Positions 1 through 526 of a DNA stretch of 526 nucleotides are shown here, one piece after another; the stretch's first letter is position 1, and every line of letters starts with the position of its first letter. Both the position numbers and the translations under genes were made by a program. The stretch is from a phage. Where the stretch lies: sequence record AF039870.1; one strand, given 5' to 3'. A model generated the notes under the pieces. The model made no database searches, was not told the origin of the DNA, and saw nothing but the letters and a program-made list of their open reading frames with translations.

Positions 1-306
1 GTAAAGCGATGTGCCATCCCAATAGATGTATGCACAACCTTCAAAAAGTAGGTCAGTGACTACAAGTCTACGGAATGTGCTTATATCCATGAATGGATTA
101 GGTCGTACATTTAAGAGAGTGTCTAGAGTCTTTGTTTTGACGCCATTAGCGTACGTAACAATATTATATTTATCTCCGACAGTATAAGAACACTCCGCCG
201 CACTATCTATAACCATATTAGCAGTTCTATTGAGAATCTCAATTTTACTGTAGGCTTGTCCAGTGGTAAAAGGCTTACGGTTAGTGCGATGACTAACTGG
301 TTCCAT
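1..306 (-). CDS. Phage portal protein, HK97-family-like, N-terminal fragment (102 codons; start ATG at 306..304, 3' end runs off the window at position 1)
   Basis: Seen in sequence: the reverse complement of 1-306 is an uninterrupted frame that translates to MEPVSHRTNRKPFTTGQAYSKIEILNRTANMVIDSAAECSYTVGDKYNIVTYANGVKTKTLDTLLNVRPNPFMDISTFRRLVVTDLLFEGCAYIYWDGTSLY. Third codon positions are A/T-biased, as expected for a low-GC genome. Established knowledge (from memory, not a search): the block LLNVRPNPFMDISTFRRLVVTDLLFEGCAYIYWDG matches the conserved N-terminal motif of HK97-family portal proteins (L..RPNP.M..F.F+......LL..GNAY), and its position about 65-85 residues from the N-terminus is typical. 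The first in-frame ATG after the upstream in-frame TAA (367-369) is at 304-306. The start assignment is less certain than the identity (see findings). Confidence 0.78.
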   Translation of the reverse strand, partial: MEPVSHRTNRKPFTTGQAYSKIEILNRTANMVIDSAAECSYTVGDKYNIVTYANGVKTKTLDTLLNVRPNPFMDISTFRRLVVTDLLFEGCAYIYWDGTSLY

Positions 307-356
307 GTCTCTTANAATACGTTGACCCGGATTTAGCTTTTCAAGTAATCCATCTT

Positions 357-526
357 TTAAAACCCATTATAAGAACCTTGCGAATCCTGATTTTGTTTCA
401 GTCTTGACTTGTGTTCNTTTCTTGAGGATTCTGTATTTTGTCTTTCTGCTTTTGAACCCATGCTTTCTGTTTATTNGCAGNNAATNGTGGGCGGTTCTTT
501 CGGGGTAAAACTTATGTAGAAATTGG
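357..526 (-). CDS. 3' end of upstream ORF, reading frame unresolved; possibly the terminase large subunit C-terminus by conserved gene order (terL then portal)
   Basis: Seen in sequence: all three minus-strand frames show coding-like stretches here. One frame is open from the window edge to TAA at 367-369 (QFLHKFYPERTAHxxLxINRKHGFKSRKTKYRILKKxTQVKTETKSGFARFL*), unless the N at 417 is A on the + strand, giving TGA. A second ends at TAA 357-359 (...TESMGSKAERQNTESSRxEHKSRLKQNQDSQGSYNGF*) and has strongly A/T-biased third positions. A third ends at TGA 398-400 (...ANKQKAWVQKQKDKIQNPQE...). Five of the six Ns fall in this span, so indels are likely. Inference: in tailed-phage head modules the gene directly upstream of portal is usually the terminase large subunit; no terminase motif is visible in this short, basic C-terminal tail. 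Confidence 0.3.
376..379 (-). promoter_or_regulatory. Candidate Shine-Dalgarno (AAGG on the minus strand) 8 nt upstream of an alternative ATG at 367..365
   Basis: Seen in sequence: the minus strand reads caAGGttcttataATGggttttaaaagatgg. The AAGG with an 8-nt spacer is a better ribosome-binding context than anything in front of the ATG at 306..304. It is a short match and only meaningful if the alternative start is real. Confidence 0.25.

Follow-up and report, generated by a model that had tools for sequence, protein, structure and literature searches.

Gene content of the analysed DNA

The window, i.e. the whole 526-base stretch of DNA analysed here, was compared by megablast with 50,697 phage records, among which a total of 439 T5-like records matched it. 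Escherichia phage T5 aligned over the full length of the window at 96.8%, and the whole window was collinear with the T5 genome, for which three independent depositions (AY543070/NC_005859, AY587007 and AY692264) were used as references. On the basis of this alignment, the minus strand is phage T5 DNA carrying the 3’-end of T5.153 followed by the 5’ part of the gene for the portal protein pb7 (T5.152). The annotated gene order in T5 is terminase, endonuclease genes, portal, decoration protein, protease and major head protein, and the junction between T5.153 and the portal gene is contained in the window.

The portal part occupies positions 1..367 of the minus strand, as assigned by megablast and alignment to T5, and covers codons 1 to ~122 of the 403 codons of the T5 gene, broken by a 1-base insertion. 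T5 pb7 (T5.152 or T5p148; YP_006980.1, AAU05287.1) is an HK97-type portal of 403 aa and is the protein of PDB entry 9ilp. The window spans only residues 1-122 of it, and the profile search was performed with the full-length T5 orthologue, which matched the Phage_portal family (PF04860, Pfam) over residues 48-363 with 172.2 bits, the cut-off being 39.1. As read, the portal frame in the window is open from 366 on in the minus strand, beginning WVLKDGLLEKLNPGQRIXRDMEPVSH..., and its translation corresponds to pb7 residues 9-122 save for one X.

The 3’-end of T5.153 lies at 370..526, also on the minus strand. T5.153 encodes a 145-aa protein, of which the last ~52 codons are found in the matched stretch, and its homologues in DT57C, Gostya9 and other records are labelled nicking site-specific endonuclease, sciA. 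In the window, single extra bases at 415, 492 and 505 disrupt the frame of this gene, which also carries Ns at 417, 476, 481, 482 and 486, and its C-terminus is split over two reading frames. The T5.153 protein of T5 contains a CxxC...HH...CxxHH-like pattern, and it had no match in Pfam at E<=0.01.

The open reading frames on the plus strand are at most 53 aa long, run antisense to the portal gene and are without support. A terminator scan of the window found none. Positions 137-318 contain, counting both strands, six sigma-70-like hexamer pairs where 1.4 were expected from shuffled sequences; all of them are weak (9/12), lie inside AT-rich coding sequence and come without evidence of function.

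The two candidate portal starts

An earlier note, made from the letters of this DNA, had described an ambiguous portal start with two candidate ATGs, and each landmark it listed was found at the position given: the ATGs at 306..304 and 367..365, the TAA and its TAATG overlap with the second ATG, the AAGG with an 8-nt spacer, and the TGA at 343..341. The ATG at 367..365 (minus strand) is the annotated portal start in the T5 records, encoding Met1 of MGFKSWITEK..., and the T5 portal CDS begins at exactly this point, its first base doubling as the final base of the T5.153 stop. That stop, the TAA at 369..367, overlaps the ATG as TAATG; T5.153 ends in ...KSGFARFL in T5, and the corresponding frame of the window ends in ...TQVKTETKSGFARFL. 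The AAGG at 376..379 of the minus strand, 8 nt upstream of the ATG, was read from the sequence as a Shine-Dalgarno element and is identical in T5 and its relatives; the equivalent AAGG in Klebsiella phage Spivey is annotated as a ribosome_binding_site. This element would serve the portal start at 367..365, and the TAATG layout, which is typical of translational coupling, may on general grounds couple translation of the portal gene to that of the upstream endonuclease gene.

In T5 the portal frame from this ATG is uninterrupted, reading MGFKSWITEKLNPGQRIIRDMEPVSH (MGFKSWITEKLNPGQRIIRDMEPVSHRTNRKPF...). In the window as read, the frame from Met1 is not intact on account of the extra T at 344/343: the open reading frame from 367..365 gives MGFKRWIT and then meets TGA at 343..341. 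The second candidate, the ATG at 306..304 (minus strand), aligns with the codon of internal Met21 of T5 pb7. It is preceded by aagaga plus 1 nt, and a TAA in its frame (369..367) lies 60 nt upstream. That two ATGs of different frame lie at a distance of 60 nt could easily be coincidence; comparison with the reference, however, shows the break of the frame to be real.

Differences between the window and T5

Base-by-base comparison over the matched stretch (526 bases in the window, 522 in T5) disclosed 17 differences, all of them within 315-526. They comprise six Ns (315, 417, 476, 481, 482 and 486), seven substitutions (353, 487, 491, 503, 510, 519 and 520) and four one-base insertions (344, 415, 492 and 505), every indel being an insertion in the window. 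Over positions 1-314, identity is 100% with T5 as well as with no fewer than 24 further records. The contrast of 0 differences in 314 positions with 17 in the remaining 212 gives p = 1.3e-7 by Fisher’s test and corresponds to a difference rate of 8% in 315-526, which constitutes a low-quality read tail. Errors are thus concentrated in the last 40% of the read, and the six Ns already suggest a raw read.

A divergent T5-like strain was considered as the source of the differences in 371-526 and rejected. The best match to this segment is T5 itself, at only 91.0%, and all 12 of the listed relatives span 153 nt against the 156 nt of the query, the insertions of the window being seen in none of them; therefore, the differences are not polymorphisms of another T5-like strain. 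Four frameshifts over two adjacent genes and six Ns in 212 bases, beside 314 perfect ones, point to a decaying read and not to a viable phage.

Only one of the four insertions, the second T at 344/343, falls between the two candidate ATGs. Here the window has ACTTGA where T5 has ACTGA, and the alignment and the list of differences both mark this base as breaking the portal frame. The TGA at 343..341 is made by the extra T only, the T5 codons at this place being ACT GAA. The three T5 genomes concur in ACTGA and in an uninterrupted frame. The extra T puts the downstream portal codons in the frame of the T5.153 stop, hence the in-frame TAA that the earlier note had seen ahead of the ATG at 306..304. 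The other change close by is C-to-A at 353 (minus strand), which turns AGC (Ser5) into AGA (Arg); all 21 T5-like loci compared have C at this position, and the change is probably a miscall as well.

The earlier note had considered a read error, and this option stood in so far as a one-base error does part the true start from the portal frame, whereas the site is not the T/A run at 354-362 to which it had been ascribed. The window and T5 do not differ in the length of the TTTTAAAA run (355-362), and the extra base is at 344/343. The reconstruction MGFKDGLLEK... offered there is consequently wrong at residues 5-8, given as DGLL: T5 has SWIT, and the window with one T removed has RWIT and reads MGFKRWITEKLNPGQRIXRDMEPVSH.

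The window segment 316-380 had no exact match in any of 441 phage records, the best identity being 96.9%, that is one mismatch and one gap. Likewise, the 24-mer spanning the insertion, TGGATTACTTGAAAAGCTAAATCC, had no exact match in IMG/VR, in the GTDB genomes (185,579 species genomes) or in the JGI metagenome contigs; the T5 version of the same 24-mer gave 20 matches in IMG/VR.

Conservation and processing of the pb7 N-terminus

TAATG followed by MG[FL]KSWITEKLNPGQRIIRDMEPVSH in a single continuous frame was found in all 21 T5-like loci inspected. With pb7 residues 1-164 as the query, tblastn retrieved 902 records, and in the relatives the alignments start at query residues 1-4, with identities of 73% for Klebsiella, 50% and 45% for Vibrio, 48% for Proteus and 35% for Aeromonas phages. 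The portal N-termini read are MAIRDWLVTKLNRGQRIIRDLEDVSH in Klebsiella phage Spivey, MGFFDWIKEKINPAQPQIQRREPSSS in Vibrio phage PG07, MGFRDWLVTKLNPAQELIAREDPSST in Vibrio phage Skimmer and MGFKDLFITKKNPVQSDIKDRDSEAQ in Aeromonas phage Akh-2. Among these more distant Demerecviridae, the Klebsiella, Vibrio and Aeromonas phages have portals beginning MGF.., or MAI.. in Spivey, with the subsequent WxxxK[LI]NPxQ stretch mostly retained; Proteus phage M4H10_20 retains ...PGQRIIR only. As judged from these alignments, the N-terminal 20 residues of pb7 appear to be largely conserved coding sequence, out to the Vibrio and Aeromonas relatives. The position of T5 Met21 is occupied by L, R, V, E or D in the Klebsiella, Vibrio, Proteus and Aeromonas relatives.

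The N-terminal cleavage of pb7 is probably carried out by the prohead protease pb11, and the sequencing of the pb7 N-terminus is reportedly that of Zivanovic et al. 2014 (J Virol). In AY692264 pb7 is annotated as ‘identified by N-Terminal sequencing; processed by proteolytic cleavage after K10’, and the cryo-EM model of T5 pb7 from 2024 spans residues 11-377 (PMC11313276). From the record and the literature, the first 10 residues are removed in head maturation and the virion portal starts at Leu11 (LNPGQRIIRD...). Residues 11-20, upstream of Met21, are in the virion portal and are therefore translated, so that the ATG at 306..304 cannot be the start.

Portal loci in related records

Inspection of the related records disclosed further irregularities at the portal locus. 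In Salmonella phage GSW6 (NC_111398; locus 601-1693) the portal is annotated as two overlapping CDS, with an indel at locus position 1018 (A7, compared with A6 in T5; portal nt ~417) that is most simply a homopolymer assembly error. The annotated portal starts of Vibrio phage PG07 (NC_048041, 601-724) and Proteus phage M4H10_20 (MT740245, ~574-730) lie ~41-43 codons past the beginning of the conserved N-terminus, which reads MGFFDWIKEKINPAQ... in PG07 and MGILTDVKAG...PGQRIIRS in M4H10_20; both annotated starts look mis-called.

The portal region of Aeromonas phage Akh-2 (MK318083, 529-1548) is annotated as several small hypothetical CDS, and the frame homologous to the portal has two in-frame stops after ~44 codons; erroneous stops or shifts of frame seem to be present in this record, unless its portal gene is truly disrupted. 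In Escherichia phage SUT_E420 (OQ990039, 102227-102925) the match to the window falls into two pieces within 699 nt, whose scores add up to more than the T5 score, suggesting that the endonuclease/portal junction of this record carries a local duplication or an insertion.

Origin of the frame break

Since every other sequence has the portal frame intact, its break in the window is put down to an error of the read. The apparent portal frameshift is almost certainly an artefact of reading, produced by one spurious base, with the ATG at 367..365 as the true start. Alternatively, the extra T could be a genuine frameshift mutation in a T5 isolate, i.e. a portal pseudogene or a defective mutant, in which translation from Met1 would stop after 8 codons at TGA 343..341 and portal would arise by re-initiation at Met21. 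The frameshift is indeed present in the sequence as read, and the split portal gene of GSW6, at a different site and in the RefSeq genome of a relative, illustrates that such genes do occur in databases. The GSW6 split, however, is itself the A7/A6 homopolymer difference described above, and the insertion in the window is common to no other sequence found among the 441 phage records, IMG/VR, GTDB and the JGI contigs. Moreover, the portal gene is structural, essential and present in a single copy, and the model of the virion portal includes residues 11-20. The location of the frameshift argues in the same direction: the stretch around it differs by 8%, with six Ns and three frame-breaking insertions in the neighbouring gene, next to a perfect run of 314 bases. 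A genuine mutation of this kind is very unlikely. The more specific case of a real T5 variant with a +1 insertion after codon 8, which would make its portal via low-level frameshifting or Met21 re-initiation, is extremely improbable; if it were true, the portal from Met21 re-initiation would lack residues 1-20.

A programmed +1 ribosomal frameshift at ACU-UGA, fusing MGFKRWIT to EKLNPGQ... in the manner of prfB, would account for the same reading, and the layout superficially agrees with it, with a sense codon, an in-frame UGA and a continuation in the +1 frame. Conservation would be expected of a programmed shift, yet the site is present in no homologue, where the gene is one continuous frame. 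At the site itself, AUU ACU UGA, the tRNA-Thr on ACU would need to pair with CUU, which allows no +1 re-pairing, and inspection of the sequence revealed no GGAGG-like or other Shine-Dalgarno-like element 3-6 nt upstream of ACU-UGA. With conservation absent and the codon context wrong, this candidate was rejected and is given next to no credence. Neither a genuine nor a programmed frameshift, both entertained in the earlier note, is supported, the frameshift being found in no relative.

The same note had also allowed that the portal truly begins at the downstream ATG, 306..304 (MEPVSH...), with the ATG at 367..365 occurring by chance. As read, the long open frame has no ATG ahead of the downstream one, and shortened portals are annotated in a few distant relatives, namely PG07 and M4H10_20. 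In both of these, however, the annotated start is preceded by an open stretch of the conserved frame, whose first residues are MGF.. or MGI.., and in the window the ribosome-binding context of 306..304 is poor, aagaga being just 1 nt away. Met21 is replaced in the relatives and is not conserved as a start, whereas the 20 residues upstream of it are conserved and the tblastn alignments begin at residues 1-4. The mature N-terminus after K10 (AY692264 note) and the cryo-EM model from residue 11 (PMC11313276) place residues 11-20 in the virion portal. A start at 306..304 is scarcely credible. Alignment of the two candidate N-termini to portal homologues, as the note had proposed, found the upstream start conserved and the MEPVSH-equivalent start not, and its choice of MGFK as a typical portal N-terminus was borne out by T5 and by the distant relatives.

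Discussion

A read artefact at 344/343, as favoured above, has consequences for quality control only: no truncated or frameshifted portal should be annotated from the window, and the N-terminus to be used is that already known for T5 pb7, with nothing new on portal biology. The case illustrates that single reads with Ns yield spurious ‘frameshift’ findings, and that a guess of the error site based on homopolymers can miss by ~10 bases.

Compared with the T5 pb7 gene start, the window has the same ATG, the same TAATG overlap with T5.153 and the same AAGG Shine-Dalgarno sequence. Three differences, namely the second T at 344/343, C-to-A at 353 and N at 315, lie in the first 53 nt of the gene. 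The pattern of differences fits that of late-read base-calling errors in single-pass reads, where insertions, miscalls and Ns rise toward the 3’-end; as in such errors, insertions in the window are within or beside repeated bases, namely TT (344/343), AA (415) and a C run (505). The likeness to prfB is of another order. In prfB, the peptidyl-tRNA re-pairs one base further on, with UUU instead of CUU, and a Shine-Dalgarno sequence within the gene lies ~3 nt upstream, whereas the window lacks the re-pairing codon, the upstream stimulator and the conservation, and would be a look-alike of prfB in layout only.
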